From Desulfobacterales bacterium (GTDB lineage Bacteria; Desulfobacterota; Desulfobacteria; Desulfobacterales; UBA11574): DNA of 28,794 nt. A program made the position numbers and the translations under genes. The stretch is from NCBI GenBank assembly GCA_036447975.1, contig JAZFVY010000162.1, positions 1 through 28,794 on the forward strand, written 5' to 3'. Under the pieces are notes generated by a model that saw only the letters and a list, made by a program, of their open reading frames with translations, did not search any database and was not told where the DNA came from. How positions within the stretch are numbered: the first letter of the stretch is position 1; each line of letters starts with the position of its first letter. Positions 2,495 through 25,864 of the stretch are shown here, one piece after another.

Positions 2495-2506
2495 TTGTGG
2501 ATTCGA

Positions 2507-3553
2507 TCACCGCACCATGTTTACTGGGTATTTTCCGAATCTTCTTGTCGCATCAATCATAGCCAAAAAATTTTCAGGCTTCACGCTTGAATGGATGCTG
2601 TTGCTGGAGGAAAGAATGTGGCCACCGCCTGGAGATGCCGTCGATATACACCTTTCCACTGCTTTGGTTACCTGGTCGGGAGTTCCGTTGGTCAGGAGAT
2701 TCCCGCAGTCTATGTTGCCGATGATGCAAACACTGCTTCCATACATTTTCTTGATCTTTTGAATGTCCATCCCTGCGATGGGGTCAATTGGATTGATTCC
2801 GTCTATCCCTGTTTCTATGATCATGTCCAAGATCTTCATGAGATTACCGTCACTATGTTTTATACAGTATGCACCCATTTCATGGACAACGTCAACTATC
2901 TTTTTTAGCCCAGGAAGGACAAATTCCTTGAAATGTTTTGGGGAAATCATCGGGCCGGTATTATAGGCGTAATCATCTCCAAACATCACTATCTCGGCCC
3001 CAGCTTTAATGGCCTTTTTAACAACCTCTATTTCATAACTCAGGGCCATTTCTGTGATCTCATGAGCAAATTTCGGATTCATTATATAATCGAGAAAAAG
3101 ATTCTCTGTTCCCCTGAGATACCTCGGATTGCTCAGGGCATCACGATTCTCCCAAATAATTGCTTTTTCCCCCTTGAACCTTTGAACTAGTTCGAGAAAA
3201 GGACCAAGAACATCAGGGTCTTCGGGGTCTGGAGGAATATATGACTTTAGATCCTCTTCGGACTCGATGATCCCTTCAACGGGGTATGCAATGGCTTCAC
3301 CGGTATAAACCCTGGTAATTCCCCATTTATCCTTGAATTTATACCCCGGTTGAACATCCCCATCATGACCCGACAATGTATGCTCATATCCCAAGGCGAC
3401 ACCATCCATCCCTATTTTCTCTAAGAAGTCAAAATAAGAACAGCCTGGATAGATGGCATTTCTTACTTTTGGATCGATACTCCACTCCAACATCGGAACC
3501 CGATCAGGTTCTCTCCGCTCAAGGGATACAAAGATCAGATCTCGTGAATTCAT
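2507..3553 (-). CDS. Uroporphyrinogen decarboxylase-like / methylcobalamide methyltransferase-family protein
   Basis: Motifs EPDRVP, DKWG, FGDDYA...GPMISP..FKEF, KHSDGN, IIGNID and PGGGHILSSSNSIH; 348 aa; RBS AAAGGAG. It lacks the HxC zinc motif of methanogen MtaA/MtbA. Confidence 0.85.
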   Translation of the reverse strand: MNSRDLIFVSLERREPDRVPMLEWSIDPKVRNAIYPGCSYFDFLEKIGMDGVALGYEHTLSGHDGDVQPGYKFKDKWGITRVYTGEAIAYPVEGIIESEEDLKSYIPPDPEDPDVLGPFLELVQRFKGEKAIIWENRDALSNPRYLRGTENLFLDYIMNPKFAHEITEMALSYEIEVVKKAIKAGAEIVMFGDDYAYNTGPMISPKHFKEFVLPGLKKIVDVVHEMGAYCIKHSDGNLMKILDMIIETGIDGINPIDPIAGMDIQKIKKMYGSSVCIIGNIDCGNLLTNGTPDQVTKAVERCISTASPGGGHILSSSNSIHSSVKPENFLAMIDATRRFGKYPVNMVR

Positions 3554-4125: not shown

Positions 4126-4767
4126 CTATTTTCTTGCAATGAGCATTCTTGCCTGTTTGACAGCTTCTGCGGCATCCTTCCCATAGCCGTCAGCACCAAT
4201 TTCTTCTGCAAATCTTGCGTCAATAGGCGCACCCCCAACCATAACTTTAACACTTTTTCGCAATCCATTATCCTTTAAAGCCTCGATCACATTTTCAATC
4301 TCAGGCATCGTTGTTGTTAACAATGCGGATAATCCAAGGATGTCAGGCTTAATCTCTTTTATTTTTTGGATCAATTTTTCAACAGTGAGGTCTACACCCA
4401 AATCGATTACAGCGTACCCTGCCCCTTCCAACATAATAATAACAAGGTTCTTGCCGATATCGTGCAAGTCACCTTTGACCGTACACATAATGATCGTGCC
4501 GTTTGCTTCAGTCTCTTCAGGTTTCAAGAGAGGCTTAATGAGAGATAGACCCTTTTTCATGGTAATGCCTGAAGCAAGCATCTCTGGTATGTATATCTCA
4601 TTGTCTACAAATTTCTGGCCAACAATATCCATCGCGGCAATCATGGCATTGTTTATTATTGCATTCAGGTTTGTGCCTTCATTGATCGATGCCTTGACCA
4701 AACTCTCTATCTCTTTATGCTTTCCACTGACAACTGCCTCTTTAATATCCCCTATATTATTACTCAT
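4126..4767 (-). CDS. Corrinoid (B12-binding) protein, MttC/MtbC/MetH-cap type
   Basis: N-terminal cap domain (AMIAAMDIVGQKF..NEIYIPEML), B12 motif TVKGDLHDIGKNLV (DxHxxG), LGLSALLTTT and VMVGGAP. Confidence 0.95.
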   Translation of the reverse strand: MSNNIGDIKEAVVSGKHKEIESLVKASINEGTNLNAIINNAMIAAMDIVGQKFVDNEIYIPEMLASGITMKKGLSLIKPLLKPEETEANGTIIMCTVKGDLHDIGKNLVIIMLEGAGYAVIDLGVDLTVEKLIQKIKEIKPDILGLSALLTTTMPEIENVIEALKDNGLRKSVKVMVGGAPIDARFAEEIGADGYGKDAAEAVKQARMLIARK

Positions 4768-6099: not shown

Positions 6100-6134
6100 T
6101 CAATTCCCCTTTCGTTTTACAGAGAAATATTTAA

Positions 6135-6338: not shown

Positions 6339-6431
6339 AATGTGAGATGATTTTTTAGGATTGATACATCAGGGTTCATCCGCCATCATGAATATTACAT
6401 AGAAAGCAAGTAACGTGAACGGGGGGAATAT

Positions 6432-7187
6432 ATGGGTTCAAATTATCGCAGGAAAATTCCAAAACATGTACAGATCTATCAGTGGTTGCGTGCTATGATC
6501 GCCAAGGGGGAAATCAAACGTGGCGACAAACTCCCCACCGAGATCGAACTGTCCCATATGTTTGCGGTTAACCGCATGACAGTACGCAAGGCTATGGATT
6601 CTCTGGTGTTTGATGCGATGGTCATCCGCCGGCCGGGTAAAGGAACTTTTCTGACCTCCGAGAAACCCAAGGATTTAATCTATACCCTGAAAAACATCAC
6701 CAGTTTTGGTAATGACATGCAAAGCGTCGGGATACAGCCTACCTATCAGGCCGTTGAGGTGAAAGTAATCCAGGCGGACGGCGAAGTAAGCAAGATGTTG
6801 AAACTGAAAAATGACAAGCGGGCCATTTATTCCCTGCGAGTGTTGCATGCCAACGATAAACCGGTACTCATCGAGAAAAGCTATCTTCCTTATTTCAAAT
6901 TCAAAGACATTCTAGATATGGATTTTAATACAACTCTTTATCAGATTATCACGGAAAAGTTCGGTATCGCATTGGATCATGCTACTCAGTGTTTGACGGC
7001 GGAGTTCCCAGGAGAAGAAGAGACCAGAATATTCGGCCTGCCCGAGCCCTGTCCCTGCATGAAGATGGAAACTGTGGTGTACGATCCCCACAACTCTCCG
7101 GTGGAGGCCCTTTTCGCCTACTATCGTGGAGATAAGTATAAATTCAAATTCAAGGCGGGGCACTATATTCGCCATTCGAACCAGTAA
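6432..7187 (+). CDS. GntR family transcriptional regulator, HutC/UTRA subfamily (PhnF/PhnR-like)
   Basis: wHTH IPKHVQIYQWL...GDKLPTEIELSHMFAVNRMTVRKA...RRPGKGTF and a UTRA C-terminus (LRVLHANDKPVLIEKSY, YRGDKYKF). Confidence 0.95.
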   Translation: MGSNYRRKIPKHVQIYQWLRAMIAKGEIKRGDKLPTEIELSHMFAVNRMTVRKAMDSLVFDAMVIRRPGKGTFLTSEKPKDLIYTLKNITSFGNDMQSVGIQPTYQAVEVKVIQADGEVSKMLKLKNDKRAIYSLRVLHANDKPVLIEKSYLPYFKFKDILDMDFNTTLYQIITEKFGIALDHATQCLTAEFPGEEETRIFGLPEPCPCMKMETVVYDPHNSPVEALFAYYRGDKYKFKFKAGHYIRHSNQ

Positions 7188-7290
7188 CCCGACTAACTTG
7201 GAATTTACAAAATCTTTTCAGCCAGTTGGAACTGATGTGAGAAAATCAATATAAATATACCTACTTACTGTTTTGCTCCGCTCTCGTGGG

Positions 7291-8163
7291 TTATCGCGCC
7301 AATCCGATAAAAACAACGCCCAAGGAAATCAAAGCCGCTCCGACAAGTTTTTGTTTACCGTGTTTTTCCTGCAGCAGGTAGATTCCGTAAAGGGTGGATA
7401 ACACGATACTCACTTCCCTGACGGCGACAACATAACTCACCTTGCTTATTTTGAAAGCAAAAAGAATCAGCATGTAAGTGAAAGGGGACAAAAATCCCAC
7501 CATTACAATGGCACCTTTGTTGAGGTGCCACTCTTGTTTCAACCAAATTCGTTCTTTGGCCAATACGTACGGAGTCAGGAGAAGCCAGGTAATGAATAGC
7601 ATCAGGTAGATGTATACCGGAGGAATGACAATGCCGACCCCGACCTTGTCAACTAAAGAATAGGCTGCGATAGTACCTCCGGTACACAGTGCCCAGATTG
7701 AGGCTCCGCTGCGCATGGCACGAAAGGGATCGAGAAAGGATTGACCGGAAAAGGAACGAAGATGAATGATATAGATACCGAATATGACCAGGGTAATGCC
7801 GGATATTCCAAGGAGAGAGAGTTGTTCATGCAATAAGCCAACGGCCAGAAAGGGTACAAGAAGGGGCCCCGACCCACGGGAAAGGGGATAAACAAGAGAA
7901 AGATCACCCCGTTCGTAGGCTCCCCCCATGAACCAGAAATAGAGCGCGTGCAAGATACCTGTGGCACCGATGCATATCCAACCGGTTTCGGAGATGCTCG
8001 CTTGAGGCCAGAAGAAAAGAAACATGGGCGAAAAAATTACCGGAGCAACCAGCAGAGCCAACCAGATAAAAGCGATCTTTCTCTGACTTTTTTTAAGAAG
8101 ATAATTCCAGCTGGCATGAAGAAAAGCGGACGCAAGCACAATTCCCAAAGCGATTCCGGTCAT
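7291..8163 (-). CDS. EamA/DMT family transporter
   Basis: About 10 hydrophobic segments with SAFLHASWNYLLK, AYERGDLSLVYPLSRG, YSLVDK and VSYVVAVREVSIV. Confidence 0.93.
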   Translation of the reverse strand: MTGIALGIVLASAFLHASWNYLLKKSQRKIAFIWLALLVAPVIFSPMFLFFWPQASISETGWICIGATGILHALYFWFMGGAYERGDLSLVYPLSRGSGPLLVPFLAVGLLHEQLSLLGISGITLVIFGIYIIHLRSFSGQSFLDPFRAMRSGASIWALCTGGTIAAYSLVDKVGVGIVIPPVYIYLMLFITWLLLTPYVLAKERIWLKQEWHLNKGAIVMVGFLSPFTYMLILFAFKISKVSYVVAVREVSIVLSTLYGIYLLQEKHGKQKLVGAALISLGVVFIGLAR

Positions 8164-8181
8164 ATATCTGATCCTCTTCGG

Positions 8182-9270
8182 CTATTTGAATATCCAGGCC
8201 GCTACCTCATGATTCGATATGGGTAAGATAGATGTCGGTCCCGGGCCATAGCCGACAATCGGGATCGCTCTTTCATGCAGCGAACCGTGGGACCGGACTT
8301 TGACCGTTTCCCTTGAGTTGGGCAAAGCCCCGAAAACCGTATCCCTGTCGGCCAACACAAAAAGATGCCCAATACGATGGGGATGGAGCCGGTATCTCTT
8401 TGCAGCTTCCGTGTTCGAGAAAACAGCTTCAATGCCCTGCTCCCAACGAAGGAGGGCCGAAGCTTCATCAATGGCAGACAGGTCATCCAGATAAATATAT
8501 GCAGCGCCGCCAAGATTCTGGTGATGGACGACATAACGATCTTTGATGATCGGGATGGCGTTTGCCGAAATCCCGGCATCTTTTAATATCCGGGTTAAAT
8601 CGAGTGCCAGGGTCTTTGGATTCATGCCATGGTCGGCCGTTACCACGATTTCAATATCCGATGCAACATTCAAGAGATCCCCGAGCAGACGATCAAGCCG
8701 GTTCATGTTCCATTGGGATTGGTCAGAATCAGGGGATAGCATATGATTGGCATAATCGGTTGTCGTTAAATAAAGCAGGTCGGGAGATTTTTCTGCAAGT
8801 ACTGTCCTGGCGGCACGGAACAGCCAATGATTAACCTCTATGGAATAGATATCCGGTGGCGCGCCGATTCGATCCACAAGCCAGGCCGAAGGCCTTTCCG
8901 CCGTCTCGGCAAGGGTTGCGCCGTCTTGGATTAAGGTTTTAAGTTTTTCTTTAGCGGTGAGAAGGGCCGATTTTCCGCCGGTTTCGCCAACCCGGCGAAA
9001 TATGGTCTCAGCCAGCAGAAATTCCGAGGATTCCATGTAAACTTCTTTTCCCGTTGACGGATCGAGAAAATAGTTGGAGGTAATGCCGTGGGTTTCCGGA
9101 AAACTTGCCGTGACAATCGTTGAGTTGTTGACATTGGTAACACTGGGAATGATCGCCTGGCCGGTTGTGCCAAATCCCTCCCGTGCGAGACTATCCATGT
9201 TCGGTGTTTCACTTTGGTCCAGATATTCGGGGCCGCAACCATCCAGACAGATAATGATCTTTTTTGTCAT
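8182..9270 (-). CDS. phnA: Phosphonoacetate hydrolase (alkaline phosphatase superfamily)
   Basis: PhnA signature motifs ICLDGCGPEY, PSVTNVNN (Thr nucleophile), TAKEKL, LYLTTTDY.NH, VTADHGMN, DRYVVHH and RSHGSLHE. Confidence 0.9.
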   Translation of the reverse strand: MTKKIIICLDGCGPEYLDQSETPNMDSLAREGFGTTGQAIIPSVTNVNNSTIVTASFPETHGITSNYFLDPSTGKEVYMESSEFLLAETIFRRVGETGGKSALLTAKEKLKTLIQDGATLAETAERPSAWLVDRIGAPPDIYSIEVNHWLFRAARTVLAEKSPDLLYLTTTDYANHMLSPDSDQSQWNMNRLDRLLGDLLNVASDIEIVVTADHGMNPKTLALDLTRILKDAGISANAIPIIKDRYVVHHQNLGGAAYIYLDDLSAIDEASALLRWEQGIEAVFSNTEAAKRYRLHPHRIGHLFVLADRDTVFGALPNSRETVKVRSHGSLHERAIPIVGYGPGPTSILPISNHEVAAWIFK

Positions 9271-9349
9271 GGTGTTTCTCCGGTTATTTTTCAGGCGAAA
9301 ACGTTTATTCTTTATAACTTAGCTAACAAACTTATTTCAAAGCCGGCTC

Positions 9350-10738
9350 CTAATAAAGCATGCCCTGTTCAACTTCACCGATTGTTTCATCCAAGATATC
9401 AAGCGCGCGGTCCATCTCCTCCCGGCTGATAACCAAGGCCGGTCTTAAGGTGATGATATTTCCTTCAATGGTCTTGAACGCAAGCCCTTTCTCCATGCAC
9501 TTATACATTATAATTTCCGCTTCATCAATAGCCCGTTCTTTCGTTTTTCTGTCCTTAACCAAGTCTATTCCTATGTGCAGGCCTACGCCTGACACGCTGC
9601 CGATAAGGGGGTGCGTTGCCTTCATATTATTCAATCTTTTGAGGGTATATTCTCCGAGTTCGGCGGCATGGGCATCTAGTCCGTTTTTTTCGATATACTC
9701 AATTTCAGCAAGGGCGGCAGCCGAACAAAGTGCGTTTTTCTCATGGGTGTAATGTCCGATTGATCGATCCTGGCACACATCATAGCATTGCCGAGTAACT
9801 ATCCCTGCAAAAGGAACAAGCCCGCCACCCATGGATTTCCCGAGAACGAGAATATCTGGTGTCAGGAAATGTTCACTGGCAAACATCTTTCCGGTTCGGC
9901 CGAATCCTTCAATGATCTCATCAAAGATCAGCAGTGTGCCATACTGCTCGCATAAGGTTTTTACACCCTCCCAATATCTTGCACTGGGGACCACCGGAGC
10001 CGCTGAGATGGGCTCCCCGACTATAGCGGCCACGCCCGGCTCCCTCTCCAGTATCAGCTCAATCTGCCTGAGGCACTCGGCATCCACATCTTCTTGTCTT
10101 TTAAAGCCCCAGGGATTTCGATAATAATTGGGAAATTCAACATGCAATGCACCCGGCATCATGGGCCCCATGCCGCCTTTGAAGTGCTCTTCCCCACCAA
10201 TGCTGGCGGCCGCGAACCCGGCACCATGGAATGAATCCCAAAATGAGATGGTTTTGAAATTTCCTGTTACCTGCTTTGCAAGCGCTAAGGCCATTTCAAC
10301 GGCCTCAGAACCTCCAGGGCAGAAAAGCGATTTACATAAATCTCCCGGAGTTATCTCTGCCAGTTTTTTAGCCAAACTGACAGTGGGTATATTTGTATAC
10401 CTTCTGGGGCAAAATGTCATCTTGGCATCCAACTGCCTTTTTACCGCTTGAATAACTTCGGGATTATTAAATCCTGCATTATGAACGCCGTTGCCGTGCA
10501 TATCGATATATTTATTCCCGTTAATATCTTCGATATATATGCCGTGGGCCCTGGACAACACATTTAATACCGGAGTCGACAGGCTCTGATGCAAAAAATA
10601 CTTGTTATCTTCGTTAAAAATGTCTCGGGTCTGGCCCAATAAATTCCTGTCCCAATATTTTTTCCTGTTCGGCGTTGTGTTTACATCTCCTTGCTCTCTT
10701 TCAATACGTTTTTCTTTTTTCATTTGTTGCATCCGCAT
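9350..10738 (-). CDS. Class-III PLP enzyme, PbfA-like paralogue
   Basis: EQGDVNTTPNR...HQSLSTP...GIYIED...MHGNGVH, SFHGAGF, FDEI, PLP lysine in LGKSMGGG, and GHYTHEKN. Same subfamily as 11026-12384 but divergent at several conserved positions. Confidence 0.85.
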   Translation of the reverse strand: MRMQQMKKEKRIEREQGDVNTTPNRKKYWDRNLLGQTRDIFNEDNKYFLHQSLSTPVLNVLSRAHGIYIEDINGNKYIDMHGNGVHNAGFNNPEVIQAVKRQLDAKMTFCPRRYTNIPTVSLAKKLAEITPGDLCKSLFCPGGSEAVEMALALAKQVTGNFKTISFWDSFHGAGFAAASIGGEEHFKGGMGPMMPGALHVEFPNYYRNPWGFKRQEDVDAECLRQIELILEREPGVAAIVGEPISAAPVVPSARYWEGVKTLCEQYGTLLIFDEIIEGFGRTGKMFASEHFLTPDILVLGKSMGGGLVPFAGIVTRQCYDVCQDRSIGHYTHEKNALCSAAALAEIEYIEKNGLDAHAAELGEYTLKRLNNMKATHPLIGSVSGVGLHIGIDLVKDRKTKERAIDEAEIIMYKCMEKGLAFKTIEGNIITLRPALVISREEMDRALDILDETIGEVEQGMLY

Positions 10739-10829
10739 TTAAGCCTCCTTTATATCTATATCCATAATCGAAAGAATGGCATGATTTTCTTATATTTCCG
10801 TCGCATTAAGGATAATTTAGGAGGAATAC

Positions 10830-10875
10830 CTAAATCAAGCTAAATTATTTAATAGATTTTATAACCGCAGGTGAT
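10830..10875 (-). promoter_or_regulatory. LysR-type box plus -35-like element for the pbfA-like/phnA/EamA operon
   Basis: Minus strand ATCACctgcgGTTAT (10861-10875), 22 bp spacer, then TTGATTTAG (10830-10838). Confidence 0.6.
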
Positions 10876-10902: not shown

Positions 10903-10948
10903 ATAACTTTTCGTTATTAATGACATGATAATTATTTCTTTGACTTAT
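10903..10948 (+). promoter_or_regulatory. LysR-type box plus -35-like element for pbfA
   Basis: ATAACttttcGTTAT (10903-10917), 22 bp spacer, then TTGACTTAT (10940-10948). Confidence 0.7.
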
Positions 10949-11025
10949 ATTATATAGGGTATAAAAATATAAATTTAAGGATACACGACAAAATCTTCAT
11001 AATATTAGAGTAATGGGGTTGGATT

Positions 11026-12384
11026 ATGGATAAGTTGCACAAATCCGAAGGCGATATTAACATTTCCCACAGGCGGGACAGATGGCAGGCAGAGAACCTC
11101 GTCGACGAGACTCGATCTCTTTTGGCGGAAGACACCCGCTACTTTCTTAAACAATCACTTTCAACACCATGCCTGAACGCCATACGAAAGTGCGAGGGCA
11201 TCTATATAGAAGACATACAGGGCCGGCGATACATGGACTTTCACGGAAACAATGTCCATCAAGTCGGCTTTGCCAACCCGGACGTCATTGAAGCCGTCAA
11301 AAAACAGCTCGATGAACTTTCCTTTTGTACCCGGCGGTATACCAACCGCATTGCCGTGGATCTGGCCGGGAAGCTGGTCAATATCGCTCCCGGCGATTTG
11401 AACAAGGTGTTATTGTGTCCGGGAGGAACGGGGGCTGTAGGCATAGCCCTGAAGCTCGCACGGATTGTTACCGGCAGACACAAAACGATATCCATGTGGG
11501 ATTCGTTCCACGGGGCTTCCCTGGACGCCATCTCCATCGGCGGCGAGGCTGTTTTTCGTCAGAACATTGGCCCCCTGCTTCCCGGCACCGAGCATGCGCC
11601 GCCGCCTGACGAGTATCGCTGCGTTTTTGGTTGCCAAAGCCGCGGCGGCTGCGATCTGACGTGCGCAAAATACGTTGAGTACATCCTCGAAAAGGAAGGA
11701 GACATTGCCGCGGTGATATCCGAACCGGTTCGCAGCACGCCTTTTATTCCCAAGCCCGAATACTGGCAAGCAATCCGCCGCGCCTGCGATCGACATGGCG
11801 CTTTGCTCATCTTCGATGAAATCCCCCATGCATTGGGTCGTACCGGCAAAATGTTTACGTTTGAAAACTTTGGCGTGGTGCCGGATATGGTCGTTATCGG
11901 CAAAGGCTTGGGCGGAGGTATTATCCCCCTGGCCGCGTTAATTGCCCGTGAAGACCTGGACGTGGCCGGCAACCGGGCATTAGGACATTATACCCACGAA
12001 AAAAACCCGGTGGCCTGTGCAGCGGCCCTGGCCACCATTGAATATATCGAAAGGCACGAGCTGGCGGCCCATGCTCGTAAACTGGGACAATACGCGCTGA
12101 TGCACATGAAGGAAATGATGAAGCGGCATCCGTTGATCGGGGACGTACGCGGACTCGGTCTTCTTATGGGGATAGAACTGGTGAAAGACAGGATAACCCG
12201 CGAGCGGGCCAGTGACGAAGCCGAGGCTGTTATGTATGCCGCTCTTTCAAAAGGCCTGAGTTTTAAACTGACCATGGGGAACATCATTACACTAACACCG
12301 GCCCTGACCATTACACATGATGAGATGGATACCGCTCTTAACATCATCGATAACTGTATCACCACAGTCGAGAAGGGGGCATGA
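11026..12384 (+). CDS. pbfA: (R)-1-hydroxy-2-aminoethylphosphonate ammonia-lyase (class-III PLP fold)
   Basis: Matches recalled PbfA motifs: SEGDIN, QSLSTPCL, EGIYIED..G..YMDFHGNNVHQ, WDSFHGASLDAISIGGE, IGKGLGGG, LGHYTHEKNP and EAEAVMY..L..GLSFK. Phosphonate gene context agrees. Confidence 0.85.
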   Translation: MDKLHKSEGDINISHRRDRWQAENLVDETRSLLAEDTRYFLKQSLSTPCLNAIRKCEGIYIEDIQGRRYMDFHGNNVHQVGFANPDVIEAVKKQLDELSFCTRRYTNRIAVDLAGKLVNIAPGDLNKVLLCPGGTGAVGIALKLARIVTGRHKTISMWDSFHGASLDAISIGGEAVFRQNIGPLLPGTEHAPPPDEYRCVFGCQSRGGCDLTCAKYVEYILEKEGDIAAVISEPVRSTPFIPKPEYWQAIRRACDRHGALLIFDEIPHALGRTGKMFTFENFGVVPDMVVIGKGLGGGIIPLAALIAREDLDVAGNRALGHYTHEKNPVACAAALATIEYIERHELAAHARKLGQYALMHMKEMMKRHPLIGDVRGLGLLMGIELVKDRITRERASDEAEAVMYAALSKGLSFKLTMGNIITLTPALTITHDEMDTALNIIDNCITTVEKGA

Positions 12385-12526
12385 GGCGCTTGCTGTTTAA
12401 AGGCTGGATCAAAGGCTTGAAACAATAATGCGAAGCGTTTTCTATCTTATTGAAGAATGAGCTTTATTCTAATATATTGTCTGCGAACTATCAGCCAACT
12501 CTTACAAAAACCGAAGGAGCACGAAC

Positions 12527-12936
12527 ATTATTAACCTTAGTGTCAACGTCAACAGGGTCGCCACTTTGCGTAACGCCCGAGGGGGGGGACGAGCCGAGCG
12601 TTGTCCGGGCCGCTCGCACCTGCATTGAGGCCGGATGCCAGGGAATTACCGTTCATCCCCGAGAGGATCAGCGCCACATCCGTACCGGTGAGTTCACGAT
12701 ATCGCCGCCATGTTATCTTCGAGTATAACATCGAGGGGGATCCTATGCCCGATCTGCTTGATTTGGCCATGGAAATCCGTCCTGCTCAGTTCACACTCGT
12801 TCCAGTCGAACCGGGAGAGATTACCTCGCACCACGGCTGGAACATCCAAAAGGACGAGAAAATTCTGAGTTTCGCTATCGAGCGCTTAAAAAAAGAAGGC
12901 ATCCGTGTGAGCCTTTTCATGGATGCAGATGCCAGC
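12527..12936 (+). pseudogene. pdxJ: Pyridoxine 5'-phosphate synthase remnant
   Basis: Three frames join to give (I)[19 protein letters not shown] / [32 protein letters not shown] / EYNIEGDP...QFTLVP...TSHHGW...GIRVSLFMDAD. The start codon reads ATT after RBS GAAGGAG. Frameshifts lie at the G8 run 12581-12588 and near 12690-12720. The C-terminal part is missing. Confidence 0.9.
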
Positions 12937-13180
12937 TGTTTACGCTCATTTAGGGTACAATATCTTTGTCCCTTGGAATGTGGACTTCCAACGACGCTAT
13001 CTGTTGTATGGGTAATTCCGGGCTAGTTACCGGTTTTTATGAGAGATCTATATAAGGAAAAGGGAGGTTACGTCAATTCTAATCCACACTATTAATAATA
13101 GTTTTGTAAAAGCAGGTGATATGTATTTAAAAAGAAAAAATGTGAAGAAAAATAGACAATTTTACATTGGAAGTTATAAA

Positions 13181-13381
13181 ATGAACGAGCCGGTCAATGA
13201 AGTTGAAATAATTCTTCGCTCAATGAAAGGAATTCTGGATATCGCCTGGCTTTTCAAAGAAGACCGACATCAGGTCATGCACCTGGAAAAACAGATCGAC
13301 AGTACGGCACCTCGGGACCTGGGTGAATATATTAATGAGGGTATCAAAAGCGTCTTCGGCAATATTCAGTCTGTCGTCTGA
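13181..13381 (+). CDS. Hypothetical protein or gene fragment colliding with the truncated acsE
   Basis: MNEPVNEVEIILRSMKGILDIAWLFKEDRH...NEGIKSVF has protein-like composition. Its 3' end overlaps the acsE remnant tail to tail. No family recognised. Confidence 0.35.
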   Translation: MNEPVNEVEIILRSMKGILDIAWLFKEDRHQVMHLEKQIDSTAPRDLGEYINEGIKSVFGNIQSVV

Positions 13382-13770
13382 GGCATACCTTTATCACTCA
13401 TGCACAGGGAGACTATCTTGAAGTCAGTGCCTGCAACCAGGAGCAAAAGAGCATTGTAGCGCTCCTTCTCAAGGGAGATAGAGTTGATCATAGGTGTACC
13501 TCGGTGGACCGTCAATACAGCTTCAATGGCCTTGGGATCGGGGCTGTCAATGCAACACGGCGCGTCAACGACCTCCTGGATCGTGACGACGAGCCACTTT
13601 AAGTCCTCGGCCTCCTTTCCGACAAAAATTCCCGCGTTTGCGTCGATGAAGTCTGCTCCGGCCTCCCTTTGACCTTTAGCCACTTTCTGAATGGCTTCAG
13701 CATCTTGAGCTTCAATTGCATCGGAAATGACTTTACGGCTGGCATTGATGAGCTCTCCTACGATAAGCAT
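13366..13770 (-). pseudogene. acsE: Methyltetrahydrofolate:corrinoid methyltransferase (AcsE/MeTr, pterin-binding), N-terminal half only
   Basis: MLIVGELINASRK, GADFIDANAG, CIDSPDPKAIEA, MINSISLE and LCMSDKGMP. It stops at 134 aa, about half the usual length. The shifted frame continues RLNIAED, then homology is lost. Confidence 0.85.
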
Positions 13771-13854
13771 TCTTAATTCCTCATAGGTTTATCTTTGTTG
13801 TTAGAAGCCAAATGGGGTTTTTTTCTTTTTGGCATTGTATCTGGTAAACCCACG

Positions 13855-14511
13855 TCAGTCTCGTTGACTCAGCAGCCTCTTGATAAGATCAACCGCGTCA
13901 ACAGCGGTCTTCCCGAATCCATCGGCTCCGATTTCATCAGCCCACTGCTGGCTGACCGGCCCACCGCCTACAATCACAAAATACTCATTGCGCAAGTTTT
14001 TCTCCTCAAGTATTTCAATGATCTCCTTCTGGGACGGCATGGTTGTAGTCATCAACGACGACAAGGCGATAACGTCGGCCTTAACCTTTCTGGCCTCTTC
14101 GATAAAATTCAGAGAAGGAACATCAACGCCGATGTCGACCACGGAAAAGCCGTTGGTCTTCAAAACCATGGATACGATGTTTTTGCCAAGGTTATGAACA
14201 TCACCCTTAACAGTCCCGATGAGCACCGTACCGGCCTTGGGGATCTCTTTGTTCTGGGCTTCAATTTCAGGCATCAGGATTTCCATGGCCGCGTTGAAGG
14301 TTGCGGCTGCCATCAAAAGTTCAGGCAAAAAGGATTCGCCCTGCTCAAAACTTTCGCCAACAATTGCCATTCCTTTGGAAAGCCCCAGTTCCACTACCTC
14401 TAAAGGATCAATATTGGCCTTAAGTGCGTCTCTGGCACTCTCCTGGATCTTATCCTGATCTCCATCGATAATGGATATGACTATATTTTTCATGAATTGT
14501 TTCTTACTCAT
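13855..14511 (-). CDS. Corrinoid protein, MtmC/MttC-like
   Basis: GLSKGMAIVGESFE.GE.FLPEL, GTVKGDVHNLGKNIV (DxHxxG), ALSSLMTTT, VGGGPV and IGADG. Directly downstream of the MtmB homologue. Confidence 0.95.
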   Translation of the reverse strand: MSKKQFMKNIVISIIDGDQDKIQESARDALKANIDPLEVVELGLSKGMAIVGESFEQGESFLPELLMAAATFNAAMEILMPEIEAQNKEIPKAGTVLIGTVKGDVHNLGKNIVSMVLKTNGFSVVDIGVDVPSLNFIEEARKVKADVIALSSLMTTTMPSQKEIIEILEEKNLRNEYFVIVGGGPVSQQWADEIGADGFGKTAVDAVDLIKRLLSQRD

Positions 14512-14543
14512 ACGTTTTCACCCCTCAACAGTCTTTTTTGATA

Positions 14544-15917
14544 TTATTCAAAAGGAATTCCCATTTCAGCCAGCTCTTCTTTTATCTCATGGTACAGCCG
14601 TACATAGGATTCGCCGGGTTTTCCCGTAACGACGTCGTAGCATTCCTGGTAACGGTTCCCGTCCGGGGCGGTTTCAATCTGGGATTCGTATTTTTCAAGA
14701 AGTTTGATGACCAGTGCGTTGGCTTCTTCCCGATTGAGCTGACAGGCAGCCTTGCCCATCTCCACACCGAATTTCGCTTCCATTGGAGTGATGCCGTCAA
14801 TCTTTACGGCCTTAAAGGGATGGGGTGTCTGAACCGCCGGGGCTCCGGATGTAACCGCACAAAGCAGGTGCGCAGCAGCTTCATAGAAATAGGTTTTTGT
14901 GTTGGGACCGCTTGCCATATATCCCAGCCAAATCACCGGCATGGGAATGTTCCGGCTGGCAGCCTGGCAGCTTGTCGATACTACCCAAAGGACATCTCTA
15001 TTTATAGAACAACCGTTTTTGAAATGGACCGGGAAACTGAGTTGGTAATTGCCCTTTTGCACTAAAAGACCCATGAGGATATAGGCCGTGCTCACCACCG
15101 CCGTTCCGGCCGGGCCGCCGCAGTAACCTCCCAACACGGGTGCTGTCTCCGCTCCCACATTTGCTCCCCAACTATGCAGGTAAGCGACCTTGTTCAGGGC
15201 TCCAAAATCTATCTTCATCTCGGAAAGTGCCCCGCACAACCAGCCATCTGTAGTACGGAGTCCAAACTGGGGGGCGCTTGCCGCAATGGTTGTTATAGCT
15301 GCTGCTGCCGTTGAAATAAGATTCATGATCGGAAGGCCCGGTCGCCCGGCCCGCCTGAGCGCTTCCCGGCCGATTTTGATCCCCCGGATGGCTGCATAAA
15401 ATTCCGCCGGAGAACCTGCCATGGCCGGAATTCCGCGGATGCTTTCCAAAGCTGAAATGCTGATGGAGTTGGCCTCGGAGATCGATCCGTATGCCTCTAT
15501 CAGATTCGTTGCCATTTCTTCGGATGTGGCCACGATTCCCGATCCCACATGAAACCAGGGGCGTTTCTTCTCATCAGGCCGCCGCATCCCAAACACGCAG
15601 GCCTCTTTGCCCTCGCCGGCAAAACAGCGGCCGGGAGCCTCCCTCAACACCTCTAGTATTTCCTCCCGGCTGAACTGGATTATCCGGTAAGTATCCTGGC
15701 AGTAAACCCCTACTTGACTCATGAAATCAACGGCAGCCTCGAACAAATTATCGGCCGCCATGTCATCTGAGGGAACCGGGTTCTCTTTGTTATAGTGAAT
15801 TCCGTAACGCTTAACCACCTCGTTGAGCCGGGGAATAAATACCTTGATGTCGAATTCCTCTTCGCTCATGATAGGCCCTTTCAACGCTCTCTCGTAAACA
15901 TCCAGAAAATTCAGCAT
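14544..15917 (-). CDS. Monomethylamine methyltransferase MtmB-family protein without pyrrolysine
   Basis: MtmB-like N-terminus (DVYERALKGP...FD...YGI), AGRPG, EMKID, P..GGY.GG, AGP.T and C-terminus A.DG..YQECYDV.T..P..Y..Y...KEEL..MG..F. The true start is probably ATG 15917 (RBS AAGGAGG), not 15944. The frame has no amber codon. Confidence 0.9.
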   Translation of the reverse strand: MLNFLDVYERALKGPIMSEEEFDIKVFIPRLNEVVKRYGIHYNKENPVPSDDMAADNLFEAAVDFMSQVGVYCQDTYRIIQFSREEILEVLREAPGRCFAGEGKEACVFGMRRPDEKKRPWFHVGSGIVATSEEMATNLIEAYGSISEANSISISALESIRGIPAMAGSPAEFYAAIRGIKIGREALRRAGRPGLPIMNLISTAAAAITTIAASAPQFGLRTTDGWLCGALSEMKIDFGALNKVAYLHSWGANVGAETAPVLGGYCGGPAGTAVVSTAYILMGLLVQKGNYQLSFPVHFKNGCSINRDVLWVVSTSCQAASRNIPMPVIWLGYMASGPNTKTYFYEAAAHLLCAVTSGAPAVQTPHPFKAVKIDGITPMEAKFGVEMGKAACQLNREEANALVIKLLEKYESQIETAPDGNRYQECYDVVTGKPGESYVRLYHEIKEELAEMGIPFE

Positions 15918-16089
15918 ACCTGTTCCTCCTTGACAATATGGCACTAAGATCCTGACCTTTCAGGTAACATCTCCCCTCTGGTACATTTTCAACCTCTTTA
16001 TTATGGCTTTCCAGTTGAAAGCCCTTTGCAATGCGAAAATAATTTCTCCTCAGAAAAAAACTTGTATTAACATTAATTTTATGAAAAAT

Positions 16090-16135
16090 ATAAATCAAAT
16101 TAAAAAATATCAGTTTTTCCATAACAACAGGTTAT
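16090..16135 (-). promoter_or_regulatory. LysR-type box plus -35-like element for the mtmB-like operon, abutting the LysR start
   Basis: Minus strand ATAACctgttGTTAT (16121-16135), 22 bp spacer, then TTGATTTAT (16090-16098). The box ends 5 bp before the LysR GTG. Confidence 0.75.
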
Positions 16136-16140
16136 GATTT

Positions 16141-17046
16141 GTGAATCTTAATCAGCTTAAAATCTTTTATCTGGCTGCCAAGCACGGTAACCTCAGCGCT
16201 GCGGCTGAAAAACTCAATATTACCCAGCCGGCCATGACAAAGGGAATCCAGCGACTCCAAGAACATTATGAAATTAAATTTTTCAACCGCTTTGGCAAAA
16301 AAATGGCCTTGACCGATGCGGGGGAGGTTCTTTATGAAATCGCTGAAAAAATCTTTGAAATGGAAAATCAGGCTGAAGAAAGTATCCGTGATTTCCAGCA
16401 ACAAAAAAGAGGACATATCCGGATCCATGCAAGTGAAAGCTTTGGTGCGTACTATCTTCCGGATATCATCGTTTCCTTCAGCAAATCAAACCCTAATATT
16501 CGTATCTCTGCAAACATCCTGCCCACCAACCAGGTCGCGGAAAACACCGCTATGCTCAAAAACGATCTGGGATTTATCTCCTATCCCGTTGAAAACGAAA
16601 AATTGGTGGTCAGAGAGGTCATAGAGGACCTTCTGGTGATCATTGTTCCGCCGGACCACCCTCTGGCGCAAAAGAAGTTAATTGAGCCCCAGTATCTGCA
16701 AGGCCAGCCCCTGATTATGCATGAAAAGGGCTCAGCCACCGAAGAGGCCTTTACCGCATATAAGCAAAAGAACAACGTGACCGCCACCGCCCGGTTGGAA
16801 CTTTCAAGCAACAGGTCTATTAAAACGGCAGTGGAAGGGGGAATAGGTATTGCCTTGATATCCCGACGGATCGCAAACAGTGAAATTCAAACGGGAAGAT
16901 TAGTTGCCGTCCCATTGTCCGATCAATCTATGAAGCATAAATATTACATGGTCCACCACAAAGATAAATATATTTCAGGGATGCTGAAGAAACTCATCGA
17001 AACGGCAGATCATTGGGTCTCGGAATATGCCAAAAGCCTTCCTTGA
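16141..17046 (+). CDS. LysR family transcriptional regulator
   Basis: MNLNQLKIF...GNLSAAAEKLNITQPAMTKGIQRLQEHY...FNRFGKKMALTDAGE, followed by a LysR substrate-binding domain; 301 aa. Confidence 0.97.
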   Translation: MNLNQLKIFYLAAKHGNLSAAAEKLNITQPAMTKGIQRLQEHYEIKFFNRFGKKMALTDAGEVLYEIAEKIFEMENQAEESIRDFQQQKRGHIRIHASESFGAYYLPDIIVSFSKSNPNIRISANILPTNQVAENTAMLKNDLGFISYPVENEKLVVREVIEDLLVIIVPPDHPLAQKKLIEPQYLQGQPLIMHEKGSATEEAFTAYKQKNNVTATARLELSSNRSIKTAVEGGIGIALISRRIANSEIQTGRLVAVPLSDQSMKHKYYMVHHKDKYISGMLKKLIETADHWVSEYAKSLP

Positions 17047-17110: not shown

Positions 17111-17946
17111 TTAAGGATAAATTCCCCTCAGTTCGGTAGCCTTGGCAACGCGGCCAACCCCCAAGATATGGGCAGCAGTGCGCATATGCCCTTTCTTTTC
17201 CCGGGAAATTCTCAATACTTCATCAAAAGCCTGTGTCATAATCTTGTGCAGACTCTCGGAAACTTCTTCCTCAGGCCACAGGAGTTCCTGGAGATTTTGT
17301 ACCCATTCAAAGTAGGAAACCGTTACGCCGCCGGCGTTGGCCAGGATGTCCGGCACCACGAAAATTCCTCACTCAAAAAGGATGTCGTCCGCTTCCGGGG
17401 TTGTGGGGCCGTTGGCTCCTTCTACAACCATACGGCACTTTAACCCGGGTGCGTTCTCAGCCGTGATCTGATTCTCCAGGGCAGCCGGGACTAGAATATC
17501 ACAATCCAGTGCCAGCAGTTCTTCATTGCTAATCTCATCTCCTTCCGCTTCGTGGCTTAAAAAGCACTTATAGCGGTCTTTGCAGGCCGAGGCTTTTTCA
17601 ATGTCGAGTCCGTTTGGATTAAAAAGCCCCCCTTTGGCCTCTCCGAAGGGAATATTGACCACCGCTGCTTTCCAGCTCATCCGCATGGCAAGCGCCTTAA
17701 TTTCGTCTAAATCCACGTCAGGATGATACCGAATTCCTCCCTTGGCCGGTCCGCGAATATCGCTATGAACCACACGATAACCCGTAAACATTTTTAGACT
17801 CCCGTCATCCATTTTACGGGGAAATGAACGATCAGTTCCCGTTTTGTCTGGCTGAGTTTTTCCAGGAGTCCTTCGTCACAAGCCAAATATTGGCTAGCAA
17901 TGTTGCCCTGCTGCCTGGCCATTTGAAACGGATTCATCTTTTCCAT
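17111..17946 (-). pseudogene. Glu/Leu/Phe/Val dehydrogenase (glutamate dehydrogenase) remnant
   Basis: Start ATG 17946 (RBS AAGGAGG): MEKMNPFQMA...[11 protein letters not shown] -1 frameshift lies in the A-run at about 17813. Then MDDGS...GYRVVH...[12 protein letters not shown]...AKGG is joined in frame to LFNPNGLD, so the central region is deleted. An in-frame TGA at 17369-17371 falls in [19 protein letters not shown]. Confidence 0.92.
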
Positions 17947-18006
17947 TCCTACCTCCTTTTTTATGTCGATTAACTATTATCAAACATCAGTAGGAACTTT
18001 TTAAAT

Positions 18007-18052
18007 ATAAATCAAATTAATCTTTATCATATTTTTAATAACCATATGTTAT
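18007..18052 (-). promoter_or_regulatory. LysR-type box plus -35-like element upstream of the gdh remnant
   Basis: Minus strand ATAACatatgGTTAT (18038-18052), 22 bp spacer, then TTGATTTAT (18007-18015). Confidence 0.75.
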
Positions 18053-23637: not shown

Positions 23638-24774
23638 CTATTTTTTAATGGGAATCGTGTAGCCCATCTCTTTGAAGGCATCTTTTGCCACAACAAAAAA
23701 GTCCTCAATATCCTTGTAGGTGATCTGGCCCAAATTGCATAACCTGAACGTTTTGACCCCGAACATTTTACCCGGATAGATGGTAAACCCTCGATCATAA
23801 CAATAGTCATGAAGCTTAAAAAAATCGAATTTATCATCTTCAGGCGCCTTGACCGTTACGACAAGACGCCCCTGAATCTTCTTGTCGATGACGGATTCCA
23901 GACCGATCTCTTTCAAGCCTTTATGAATTGCCTCCCAACATTTAGTCAAACGGTCCCAGCGGGCCTGTTCGCCTTCTTCCCAATACTCCTCTATGGCTTG
24001 CCGTAAAGCATAGATGGTCTGGACCGGCGGGGTAAAATGCATCTCTCCCACTCTTTCAAGAAAATCGTATTGCATGTAAAGGTTACAGTAGTAGGAACGT
24101 GTGGGATAATCTTTGGACTTTTTTATTTCTTCTATGTTGCCGACCAGCCATGAAGCACCGGTCATGGCGGCAAGTCCTTTCTGGGCGGAAGACATCAGAA
24201 AATCGATATTCTCCTTTTCAATATCAATAGGCATTAACCCGTAAGTAGAGATGGTGTCGACAATGAAAACACATCCGTTGTCATGGGCGATTTTACCGAT
24301 CTCTCTGACCGGATTTAAGACACCGGTACCGGTTTCATGATGAACCGTTGCCACCACGACGATGTCTTTATCTTTTTGCAATGTTTCTTGGACGACATCC
24401 AAATCGGGCAGACCTGTGGTTGGAAATTCAAGGTTCACACAGGGGATATGGTAATAATCAGCGATTTCCGCCATCCTGGCCGAATAGGCGCCGTTGTTTA
24501 CAATACATATTTTTTTATTTTCAGGAACAAGCGAATTGACACAAACATCCTGTATGATCGTGCCGGACCCGGTAAAGATGACTGCCGTATATTTTTCGGG
24601 ATCAGCGTTGCCAATCTTGACCAGCTCTTTGCGAATATCGATCATTATATCGACAAACTCTTGCTCTCTGGGGCAAATATCCGGCACGACCTGGGCATAT
24701 TTTACCGAATCGCTGGTTGTCGCCGGACCGGGGTTCAACAAAATGTTTCGCTTAACAGGTTTGACCACCTCCAT
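23638..24774 (-). CDS. phnW: 2-aminoethylphosphonate-pyruvate transaminase (class V PLP)
   Basis: LLNPGPATTS.SVK.AQVVPDICPRE.EF, GSGT, NNGAY..RM, VHHETGTG.LNP, VDTIS, SSAQKG (PLP lysine), FTPP and FTIYPGK. The true start is ATG 24774 (RBS GAGGAGG); the tracked ORF is 31 codons too long. Confidence 0.92.
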   Translation of the reverse strand: MEVVKPVKRNILLNPGPATTSDSVKYAQVVPDICPREQEFVDIMIDIRKELVKIGNADPEKYTAVIFTGSGTIIQDVCVNSLVPENKKICIVNNGAYSARMAEIADYYHIPCVNLEFPTTGLPDLDVVQETLQKDKDIVVVATVHHETGTGVLNPVREIGKIAHDNGCVFIVDTISTYGLMPIDIEKENIDFLMSSAQKGLAAMTGASWLVGNIEEIKKSKDYPTRSYYCNLYMQYDFLERVGEMHFTPPVQTIYALRQAIEEYWEEGEQARWDRLTKCWEAIHKGLKEIGLESVIDKKIQGRLVVTVKAPEDDKFDFFKLHDYCYDRGFTIYPGKMFGVKTFRLCNLGQITYKDIEDFFVVAKDAFKEMGYTIPIKK

Positions 24775-24817
24775 TTTAATTCCTCCTCTAAATTCAAATT
24801 CAAGCAAAACCGACAGG

Positions 24818-25864
24818 CTACATCCTTCCCACTTTCTTGATTCCCGACTTTTTACTGGGATCTTCAACTTCTTCTACAATGCCAAACCCGCTGCCGTAGA
24901 GTTTCTGTCTTTCGGTAAAGGCCTTCTTCCATTCATCAGGCGTTCGAGTGAGTGCCGGTTTTGCATTTTTATTCCGATCTTTCATTGGAGGAACCTGCCT
25001 GTCGGAAGGTCCGTCGTAATCTTCTTTAGGTGTTAATTCCTGTCCCTGCCGCGTATACGCTCCTCTTTCAATTTCTTCGATATAATGGGCTCCGGCAGCA
25101 AAAGAGCGGGTAACCGCCAGGATGACCCAAGTCGCCTCCGGGGTAAAACCCAGATCCATCATGGTGGCACCGGTGGCGCCGAGCATGTCTAGATCCACGG
25201 GTTCGGCGCTTGCTCTTTGGGCCGCCTTGACGATTGCTTTAGTGAATGCGATGTATTTGCCTGCCAGGCCGAGCTTTTCCGCACGTGCAAACATGCGTTT
25301 GGCTGCCTGGTCTTTTAGCATCAGACTGGAAACCCCCAGGGCTTCATCATTCAAGTTCTCCTTGACCAATAGTTCGGCCGCTTCTTCAAGGGACATGCTT
25401 TCTTCTTCAGCATTTTTTAAATACTTCTCGAGTCTGTTTCCAAATGCCGAGTACGCTCCGTAGGCATGTCCGAAGGCCAATATGGATGCGCCGCAAGCCT
25501 GAGTTAAAAAGGTTTTAGATCTGGCAACGATCCTTGACATTACCGCCGGCATGGACAGTCCGTCTTCCAAGGCCAGAATCATAACGTAATTCAACATCTT
25601 TTCTTCTTCGATTAATGGTATTCTGGCCTGTAAATCCACGAAAAGAACGTCAACCATACCATAGCCTTCTTCCATGAGTTCAGTGGTATCGAATCCCCGG
25701 GCAACGATCCGGTGAACGTTCTTGTAAGCGACTTCGGAAACCCACTGAAAAGGCGCCCTTGTGGTGTCAAGAGATACAGTACCGTACTCTCTTTTACTAT
25801 AGTCATAAGGCATTTTATCACTATCTAAATTCCCAATGCCTTTTTTATCACCTATATCACCCAT
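24818..25864 (-). CDS. Citryl-CoA lyase / citrate-synthase-fold protein (copy B, degenerate active site)
   Basis: WVSEV...IVARGF...L, LEDG, FGHAYG, DMLGA.GA.MMDLGF, TRSF..GAH.IEE and YDGPSDR.VP. The start overlaps the upstream paralogue by 13 nt. Confidence 0.85.
   Translation of the reverse strand: MGDIGDKKGIGNLDSDKMPYDYSKREYGTVSLDTTRAPFQWVSEVAYKNVHRIVARGFDTTELMEEGYGMVDVLFVDLQARIPLIEEEKMLNYVMILALEDGLSMPAVMSRIVARSKTFLTQACGASILAFGHAYGAYSAFGNRLEKYLKNAEEESMSLEEAAELLVKENLNDEALGVSSLMLKDQAAKRMFARAEKLGLAGKYIAFTKAIVKAAQRASAEPVDLDMLGATGATMMDLGFTPEATWVILAVTRSFAAGAHYIEEIERGAYTRQGQELTPKEDYDGPSDRQVPPMKDRNKNAKPALTRTPDEWKKAFTERQKLYGSGFGIVEEVEDPSKKSGIKKVGRM

Follow-up and report, generated by a model that had tools for sequence, protein, structure and literature searches.

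A phosphonate gene island in the window analysed here, a 28,794-nucleotide contig of a Desulfobacterales-like metagenome-assembled genome (MAG), contains a homologue of the monomethylamine methyltransferase MtmB in which methionine stands in place of pyrrolysine (Pyl). Its predicted substrate is N-methyl-2-aminoethylphosphonate (M1AEP), whose demethylation would give 2-aminoethylphosphonate (AEP) for the aminotransferase PhnW. This is the best-supported of the explanations considered, and from sequence comparison we put its probability at about 0.55. The association of the gene with AEP genes is strong and specific to the clade of its orthologues.

An MtmB homologue without pyrrolysine

The gene (14544..15917, minus strand) encodes a Pyl-free corrinoid methyltransferase of the MtmB family (MT1) of 457 aa. 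Its open reading frame (ORF; 14544-15944, minus strand) has no internal stop and at its longest begins with a GTG at 15944; the ATG at 15917 was taken as the true start because almost all of the 120 closest homologues are 457 aa long. The match to the MtmB profile PF05369 spans the entire protein and profile positions 3-450 of 450 (E 4.6e-89; 299.7 bits, cut-off 25), and a phmmer search of the PDB retrieved MtmB of Methanosarcina barkeri (1L2Q/1NTH, E 9e-56). An AlphaFold2 model (pLDDT 97, built on 146 sequences) was aligned by Foldseek with 1L2Q at a TM score of 0.95 and an rmsd of 1.6 Å over 452 columns; for 1L2Q, 1NTH and 1TV2 taken together, the TM score is 0.95, the rmsd 1.5-1.6 Å and the identity 27%. 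It is near certain that the enzyme is the substrate-specific MT1 of a corrinoid-dependent demethylase.

In the phmmer alignment, GRPGLPI-M-NLIS of the window protein lies opposite GRPGMGV-Pyl202-GPETS of M. barkeri MtmB, so that the GRPG motif is shared and Pyl202 faces Met198. The alignment to 1L2Q and the codon thus agree with the first-pass annotation, made from the letters of this DNA alone, which had read a methionine at the Pyl position: the codon is an ATG (15326-15324, minus strand), specifying residue 198 from the ATG start or 207 from the GTG start, and an in-frame UAG for pyrrolysine is absent at the position of residue 202. Glu229 of M. barkeri MtmB is opposite a leucine, and Glu259 is retained as glutamate. 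PylB above cut-off was not found in the window's genome, a MAG of 2.68 Mb in 525 contigs that is 83% complete. Ribosomal proteins L2 and S19 of this MAG group with those of Desulfobacterales MAGs in clusters at 90% identity.

An MttB-family gene elsewhere in this genome (L022, contig C244, ~107-1615, plus strand) contains one in-frame TAG, located at residue 343 of the stretch as translated. Its context, GGG-TAG-VDS, is by position near the pyrrolysine site of MttB, and a corrinoid gene follows at ~1708-2337. The window's organism, whose MtmB homologue is Pyl-free, may decode pyrrolysine in MttB.

Association with aminoethylphosphonate genes

Gene neighbourhoods were compared for orthologues of 65-92% identity from Chloroflexota, Spirochaetota and one deltaproteobacterial MAG. 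Canonical AEP genes were present within 10 kb at 7 of 13 informative orthologue loci and at none of seven loci with MtmB homologues from outside the clade (30-48% identity); PhnW, PhnX and PbfA were all absent from these seven, one of which adjoins acetyl-CoA synthase. At the genome level, 301 sampled Anaerolineae genomes included 4 with the orthologue, 10 with PhnW and 2 with both (p 0.006), and when orthologue genomes were pooled, at least 10 of 14 carried PhnW above cut-off, compared with 8 of 297 other Anaerolineae. The co-occurrence of the clade with phn genes, on which the first-pass annotation had made its phosphonate reading depend, was therefore found among loci as well as among genomes.

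The arrangement of these genes varies. On one strand of L018 lie, in order, GntR, PhnW, PhnA-like, PhnX, MttB, MtmB, ADH, MtmB and corrinoid genes; PhnW scores 513 bits (cut-off 296), PhnX 328 (cut-off 220), and the PhnA-like protein is 54% identical to that of the window. The MttB and MtmB-paralogue genes of this locus, which comes from a long-read assembly, are each split by one frameshift. PhnW and PhnX are found directly upstream in L005, and PhnX occurs in L007. In four further loci (L003, L006, L012 and the P0018 locus), a divergent GntR gene separates the methyltransferase genes from PhnW, a PbfA orthologue (73-79% identity) and a further class-III enzyme; in L003, L006 and L012 the PbfA genes flanking the methyltransferase operon are orthologues of the second PbfA copy of the window, and L006 also carries the island's two citrate-synthase-like (CS) genes. 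In the Spirochaetota locus L009, the neighbours are counterparts of the island's CS2, SauS-like, HAD and saccharopine-dehydrogenase-like genes, with PhnW ~16 kb away on what is apparently the same contig. In the deltaproteobacterial MAG (L019), genes for LysR, HAD and a class-III aminotransferase precede the MtmB orthologue, and phosphate transporters lie alongside.

A shared promoter module

The MtmB homologue is preceded by a module (16088..16135, minus strand) composed of a LysR-type dyad, ATAAC-N5-GTTAT (16121-16135), followed by TTGATTTATAT (16098-16088). Both parts are over-represented in the window: the dyad ATRAY-N5-RTYAT has 6 matches where 0.79 are expected, and TTGAYTTAKNT has 7 where 0.39 are expected. 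On the coding strand, a TTGAYTTA lies ~22 bases downstream of each dyad; the seventh copy of this motif comes after a degenerate dyad at 10861. Every one of the resulting seven modules (2448-2494, 3787-3834, 10828-10875, 10903-10950, 16088-16135, 18005-18052 and 26948-26995) faces a gene start in front of an island operon; the genes so fronted are the MtmB homologue, phnW/CS, NUDIX/CS1, both pbfA genes, the URO-D gene and the ABC (ATP-binding cassette) importer.

Module 16088-16135 abuts the start of a divergent LysR-family regulator gene (16141..17046, plus strand; PF00126, PF03466). This gene is conserved beside the MtmB homologue in L031 and L032, and L019 has a counterpart with 60% identity. 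Its product is probably the regulator of the island, and the seven modules probably tie the island's blocks into one regulon. That the MtmB homologue sits inside a phosphonate regulon, as had been proposed, thus gains support at the level of sequence from the promoter module it has in common with phosphonate genes. A scan of 12300-16300 for sigma-70 promoters and terminators returned nothing above shuffled sequences.

Relatives and operon layout

The homologue belongs to a broad family, in which 237 clusters at 50% identity score E<=1e-30; the Pyl column varies among them (L, I, V, G, T, M, S, C) and GRPG is conserved. Many close homologues are 72-97% identical, and the few that are organism-named come mostly from MAGs of Anaerolineae or other Chloroflexota. 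Met198 is kept in 96% of 135 orthologues. Immediately upstream of the orthologue, nearly every related locus has a second MtmB homologue (a paralogue, ~52% identical) with mostly leucine at this position; orthologue and paralogue form sister clades with 100% support each. In the tree, the window protein nests among Anaerolineae sequences, and the orthologue was absent from all 401 genomes sampled in the window's own phylum (best identity 48%). Because of this absence and nesting, horizontal acquisition of the gene is likely.

The full layout in Anaerolineae consists of a divergent GntR gene, optional PHO4 and PhoU_div genes, a non-Pyl MttB homologue, the MtmB paralogue, the MtmB orthologue, an optional major facilitator superfamily (MFS) transporter and a corrinoid protein. 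Of the three methyltransferases in the operon, the orthologue usually comes last. It is also the methyltransferase that is found alone beside AEP genes (in the window lineage, L009 and L019).

Several features of these loci were observed in addition. One Anaerolineae contig (L007) has two paralogue-orthologue tandems, at 189-3636 and 6102-8839, one with a corrinoid gene and PhnX and the other with a trio of PHP, URO-D and HAD genes. This trio, in which the PHP-domain protein is a metallohydrolase of the CehA/McbA family, lies downstream of the methyltransferases in L018 (12315-15048) and L007 (8850-11614); in L008 (5905-7583), only its PHP and HAD genes were detected. The trio possibly comprises a second methyltransferase (MT2) and phosphoesterases that free a phosphonolipid head group. 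PiT-family PHO4 and PhoU_div genes occur in or beside the operon in three lineages (the P0018 locus, L031 18693-20466 and L019 4488-6082) and may export released phosphate or import the phosphorus-containing substrate.

Non-Pyl MtmB homologues from outside the clade (44-48% identity; L039 7012-19711, L038, L033) are arranged as divergent MtmB-corrinoid pairs. Those of L039 adjoin AcsE, CdhD, RACo and acetyl-CoA synthase genes. Such pairs often adjoin an ABC importer, the binding protein of which shares 31-42% identity with the PhnS2-like protein of the window.

Proposed substrate and mechanism

M1AEP is common in nature and is not a substrate of PhnW; the enzymes described for its catabolism, PbfB, PbfC and PbfD, are FAD (flavin adenine dinucleotide)-dependent, and PbfD acts like an oxidase (PMC10590968). 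The PhnWYA route suits an anaerobic way of life but is unable to take M1AEP, and degradation of trimethyl-AEP is known only via two oxygenases (PMC10590968). PhnW and PhnX are specific to AEP and phosphonoacetaldehyde, and a demethylase wired to them should therefore make AEP. Since a lone enzyme feeding PhnW must itself release AEP, the orthologue was assigned the last step and most likely makes AEP from M1AEP. The first-pass annotation had pointed to either M1AEP or methylamine released from it. The association with AEP genes and the common promoter module favour the former, which would supply PhnW with AEP; free methylamine is poorly supported, as Pyl is missing and the enzymes that release methylamine are FAD-dependent.

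According to the proposed mechanism, the axial pocket in the TIM barrel of the MtmB homologue, where Met198 would take the place of pyrrolysine, would receive an N-methylated aminophosphonate, most likely M1AEP. The methyl group would pass to Co(I) of the adjacent corrinoid protein with release of AEP, which PhnW, encoded in the same LysR-controlled island, would convert to phosphonoacetaldehyde. An MT2 would then pass on the methyl-Co(III) group, probably to tetrahydrofolate (THF) and the Wood-Ljungdahl pathway as the presumed acceptor, and a RACo-type activator would repair the oxidised cofactor. In the Anaerolineae operon, trimethyl-AEP would be converted stepwise to dimethyl-AEP, monomethyl-AEP and AEP, with the order of steps presumed. 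A wider proposal is more tentative, and we place it somewhat below even odds: an O2-independent B12 pathway in which the MttB homologue and then the two MtmB sister clades strip the three N-methyl groups of trimethyl-AEP, one corrinoid protein carries the methyl groups to folate, and AEP enters PhnW-based C-P cleavage.

Residues of the pocket were considered by combining strand positions, obtained with DSSP on the model, with clade-specific conservation. Positions conserved specifically in the clade lie on the eight barrel strands in 24 of 86 cases, compared with 6 of 179 for positions shared by the family (p 1.7e-8). On these strands the orthologue differs from the paralogue by W330 (Ala), F295 (Gly) and E257 (Thr), with larger side chains and a carboxylate in place of small residues, a pattern that would be expected of a tighter pocket for a less methylated, N-H-bearing amine. 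His123, Ser151, Ser153, Thr364 and His366 are common to both sister clades and rare elsewhere, which makes them candidates for a phosphonate site.

Corrinoid partner, methyl acceptor and activator

The cognate corrinoid (B12-binding) protein (13855..14511, minus strand; 218 aa; PF02310, PF02607) is encoded by a gene beginning 32 bases downstream of the MtmB homologue, and in most related loci a corrinoid gene likewise comes after the MtmB orthologue. It scores 220.7 bits with TIGR02370 (cut-off 215.3), and the D-V-H-N-L-G found in its translation agrees with the DxHxxG motif. Next follows a remnant of a methyl-THF:corrinoid methyltransferase, an MT2 (13366..13770, minus strand; PF00809), consisting of only the N-terminal 134 of ~268 residues (NF005719 positions 1-134 of 268). 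Profile matches therefore bear out the succession of MtmB homologue, corrinoid protein and acsE remnant that had been noted previously.

Possible substitutes for this MT2 are the URO-D gene of the island and pterin-binding paralogues elsewhere in the genome. The URO-D gene (2507..3553, minus strand; PF01208) encodes a protein of the MtaA-CmuA family, with a TIGR01463 match below cut-off, and has its own copy of the promoter module; a URO-D gene also follows the corrinoid gene in L018 and L007, but with only 22% identity to that of the window. The pterin-binding paralogues are located on contigs C165 and C11. The C11 copy adjoins the acetyl-CoA synthase of this genome, and the C165 copy is a short ORF of 166 aa near a contig end. 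A RACo-type activator is encoded on contig C13 (PF14574, 358 bits).

A second corrinoid protein of the island (4126..4767, minus strand; PF02310, PF02607) is 33% identical to the first. Directly upstream of its gene lies a saccharopine-dehydrogenase-like gene (4924-6099, minus strand), and a 47% identical homologue of the latter (8611-9732) lies directly upstream of the MtmB orthologue in L009. This pairing recurs and has no obvious role in a methyl-transfer system.

The phosphonate island and its integrity

From its low to its high end, the island comprises an ABC importer with a PhnS2-like binding protein, the URO-D gene, the second corrinoid protein, the saccharopine-dehydrogenase-like gene, a GntR regulator, an EamA transporter, a PhnA-like gene, two PbfA genes, PdxJ fragments, the MT2 remnant, the first corrinoid protein, the MtmB homologue, the divergent LysR gene, glutamate-dehydrogenase fragments, NUDIX and CS genes, a SauS-like acylating aldehyde dehydrogenase and PhnW-AepZ. 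The latter (23638..24867, minus strand; TIGR03301, 427.9 bits against 360.8) is the AEP aminotransferase proposed to use the demethylated product. Both PbfA-family lyases are above the NF049939 cut-off of 525, copy 1 (9350..10738, minus strand) with 655 bits and copy 2 (11026..12384, plus strand) with 715.8. The PhnA-like protein (8182..9270, minus strand), of the phosphonoacetate-hydrolase family, scores 206 bits with TIGR02335, below the cut-off of 407, and the SauS-like dehydrogenase scores 475 bits with the model of the sulfoacetaldehyde enzyme, below the cut-off of 600. PhnX above cut-off was not found in the 83% complete genome.

Pseudogene fragments of PdxJ (12450..13026, plus strand; partial PF03740 matches in two frames) abut the MT2 remnant, and a glutamate-dehydrogenase fragment occupies 17369..17812 (minus strand). 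The same island is found in two more assemblies, L032 (100% identical) and L031 (97% identical). L032, an independent assembly, contains the MT2 remnant and the fragments of PdxJ and of the dehydrogenase in exactly the same form, so that the MT2 remnant is not an artefact of the window's MAG. In L031, PdxJ is intact (240 aa) and the MT2 and dehydrogenase remnants are absent, with the LysR gene, MtmB homologue and corrinoid gene in place. Comparison of the two indicates that the decay around the MtmB homologue is real but recent.

Contig C368 of the window's genome (L023, 1-2822, minus strand) encodes a non-Pyl MttB homologue of 480 aa, a small ORF with a weak match to the MetH activation domain and a corrinoid protein cut at the contig end, a layout resembling the split methionine-synthase and betaine-demethylase clusters described in 2022-2025. 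This MttB homologue was not counted as the missing first enzyme of the operon, as it is only 56% identical to the operon MttB and has the MetH-activation-like fragment and corrinoid gene alongside.

Alternative explanations

Several observations weigh against M1AEP as the substrate. The genomes compared are related and few, so that the p-values make the case look stronger than it is. At L013/L014 and L010, AEP genes are absent within 10 kb, although both genomes carry PhnW elsewhere; L013/L014 have a pyridoxal phosphate (PLP) decarboxylase, FGGY, PfkB and NUDIX genes instead, and L010 has nothing from the gene panel. One orthologue genome (G404) is without PhnW above cut-off. In the window itself, no intact MT2 adjoins the corrinoid gene and no recognisable continuation of the remnant exists in any frame, and the MtmB paralogue was not found in the window's genome. 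The putative phosphonate-binding residues (His, Ser, Thr, Lys, Arg) were assigned by conservation and not by placement in three dimensions. Finally, PiT-type PHO4/PhoU_div genes and HAD/PHP phosphoesterases in several loci suit a phosphate ester equally well.

A methylated phosphate ester is the main rival, though an improbable one. The orthologue would then act on N-methyl-phosphoethanolamine, the paralogue on dimethyl-phosphoethanolamine and the MttB homologue on phosphocholine; the phosphoethanolamine formed would be degraded by the class-III PLP enzymes annotated as PbfA, a PLP class that also includes ethanolamine-phosphate phospho-lyase. PHO4/PhoU_div genes in or beside the operon (P0018 locus, L019, L031) and HAD and PHP phosphoesterase genes downstream in L018, L007 and L008 would fit such a substrate, and the island's acylating aldehyde dehydrogenase could take acetaldehyde. 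There is precedent as well: MthB, a member of the MttB superfamily in Eubacterium limosum, demethylates phosphocholine (PMC12155760), which also counts against M1AEP, and MtqB, a non-Pyl MtmB, takes choline (PMC13044021). However, the recurring neighbours are AEP-specific by curated models (PhnW, TIGR02326, 504 bits against 401; PhnX, TIGR01422, 328 against 220; PbfA, 716 against 525), and none of them would be needed for a phosphate ester. Nor does an MthK-like choline kinase recur beside the operon; a single APH-family gene lies ~8 kb off, in L014 only. A demethylated product other than AEP would be expected if the substrate were an N-methylated 1-hydroxy-2-aminoethylphosphonate (HAEP), yielding (R)-HAEP for the two PbfA lyases and not AEP for PhnW. 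Two PbfA-family genes are indeed located no more than 5 kb away, beyond the corrinoid gene, and in L003, L006, L012 and the P0018 locus the operon is accompanied by a PbfA orthologue, but L018, L005 and L007 pair the methyltransferases with PhnW and/or PhnX without PbfA. Nothing was found on how abundant N-methyl-HAEP is in nature, and one study handles such compounds as synthetic test substrates (PMC10590968). This substrate seems somewhat less likely still. We give the same low standing to some other, unrelated methylated amine of small size, for instance N-methyltaurine, sarcosine, or the choline or tetramethylammonium used by MtqB, in which case the phosphonate neighbourhood and regulator would be common only through scavenging of organic nitrogen or phosphorus. 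The SauS-like dehydrogenase would also fit a taurine route, MtmB homologues outside the clade share the PhnS2-like type of ABC importer in other contexts, and the family is diverse (237 clusters) with a variable Pyl column. Yet the association with PhnW, PhnX and PbfA extends over at least three phyla and several layouts, often with co-directional and abutting genes, it is specific to the orthologue clade, and no taurine-specific gene was identified.

The two remaining alternatives are less probable. That the MtmB homologue is a decaying, non-working relic of a horizontally acquired operon is suggested by the MT2 remnant, PdxJ fragments and glutamate-dehydrogenase fragments that flank it and by its absence from all 401 own-phylum genomes. 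This is very unlikely, given that the ORF is intact, of full length and 97-100% identical in three assemblies, that the gene is under purifying selection (dN/dS 0.19 against L031 and 0.06 against L003; 0.31 for the corrinoid gene) and has kept its own copy of the promoter module, and that L031, which lacks the MT2 remnant, nevertheless keeps the MtmB-corrinoid pair. Least probable of all is free monomethylamine, released from M1AEP by another enzyme, despite the homology to monomethylamine methyltransferase and the small monomethylamine activity of MtqB without Pyl (PMC13044021). The replacement of Pyl202 by methionine and the leucine aligned with Glu229 speak against it, as does the fact that it leaves the tandem paralogues and the MttB homologue beside PhnW/PhnX unexplained. 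PbfC and PbfD, the enzymes shown to release methylamine from M1AEP, are FAD-dependent, and PbfD acts like an oxidase (PMC10590968). Enzymes of this kind are not to be expected in the window's organism, an anaerobe whose genome has acetyl-CoA synthase; none is present among the window genes, the rest of the genome not having been searched for them.

Comparison with known systems

Demethylation of M1AEP by the MtmB homologue would bring to a known type of system both a substrate class and a pathway logic that are new to it, and no paper was found that links MtmB or MttB homologues, or corrinoid-dependent demethylation, to aminophosphonates. If correct, it would link the phosphorus redox cycle to methylotrophic one-carbon metabolism, show what a non-Pyl MtmB pocket recognises and help to explain why pyrrolysine is needed only for bare methylamines. 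The described routes employ FAD-dependent oxidoreductases for mono- and dimethyl-AEP and iron oxygenases for trimethyl-AEP (PMC10590968), and what is at stake is the recycling of phosphorus and nitrogen in anoxic sediment and water. The wider pathway from trimethyl-AEP, if it exists, would constitute the first anaerobic route for methylated aminophosphonates and assign a role to a large orphan branch of MtmB that would have spread horizontally (Chloroflexota, Desulfobacterota, Spirochaetota). That Pyl-free homologues of MtmB exist has been known for a long time. The MtmB family has more than 1000 Pyl-free members and one assigned function (PMC13044021); for the orthologue clade there is now a testable substrate prediction, the candidate substrates having already been synthesised.

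The Pyl-containing MtmB of M. barkeri (EC 2.1.1.248; 1L2Q, 1NTH, 1TV2) resembles the window protein in Pfam family, TIM barrel, GRPG motif, Glu259 and an adjacent corrinoid gene. The window protein differs by Met198 in place of Pyl202, the leucine at Glu229 and its bacterial host, its gene stands in a phosphonate island without mtbA or a coenzyme M (CoM) context, and its barrel-strand residues are largely clade-specific.

The function of the one characterised relative, MtqB of Methanococcoides methylutens Q3c, was published in March 2026 as the first assigned to a non-Pyl MtmB (PMC13044021). It acts on tetramethylammonium and choline, and the earlier view that no substrate had been assigned to any non-Pyl MtmB is therefore outdated. 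A tree of 1,061 sequences has MtqB close to the Pyl-MtmBs, with the other non-Pyl MtmBs left without an assigned function (PMC13044021). Compared by description and not by sequence, MtqB and the window protein are both Pyl-free members of the MtmB family with a cognate corrinoid protein and a substituted methylammonium substrate (predicted for the window protein), and the choline used by MtqB resembles an N-methylated aminoethylphosphonate in shape. MtqB, however, is archaeal and methanogenic, feeds CoM and is encoded with mtqC/mtbA, whereas the window gene lies among phosphonate genes in a Desulfobacterales-like MAG.

Within the MttB superfamily, MtgB (glycine betaine) and MthB (phosphocholine; E. 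limosum) follow the same logic of MT1, corrinoid protein, MT2 to THF and activator (PMC12155760, PMC13080624), and MthB provides a precedent for a phosphorylated aminoethyl compound as substrate (PMC12155760). They belong to a different Pfam family (PF06253), and their fold matches the window protein only at a TM score of ~0.5, but the orthologous Anaerolineae operon begins with a gene for a non-Pyl MttB homologue.

PbfB, PbfC and PbfD have the role proposed here for the MtmB homologue, channelling M1AEP into AEP hydrolytic pathways, and they too were found through the recurrence of genes in AEP clusters (PMC10590968). Their fold is unrelated, and they act by oxidative deamination to phosphonoacetaldehyde and methylamine, with O2 used by PbfD (PMC10590968). 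Unlike these enzymes, the MtmB homologue would demethylate non-oxidatively, conserving the methyl group as methyl-corrinoid.

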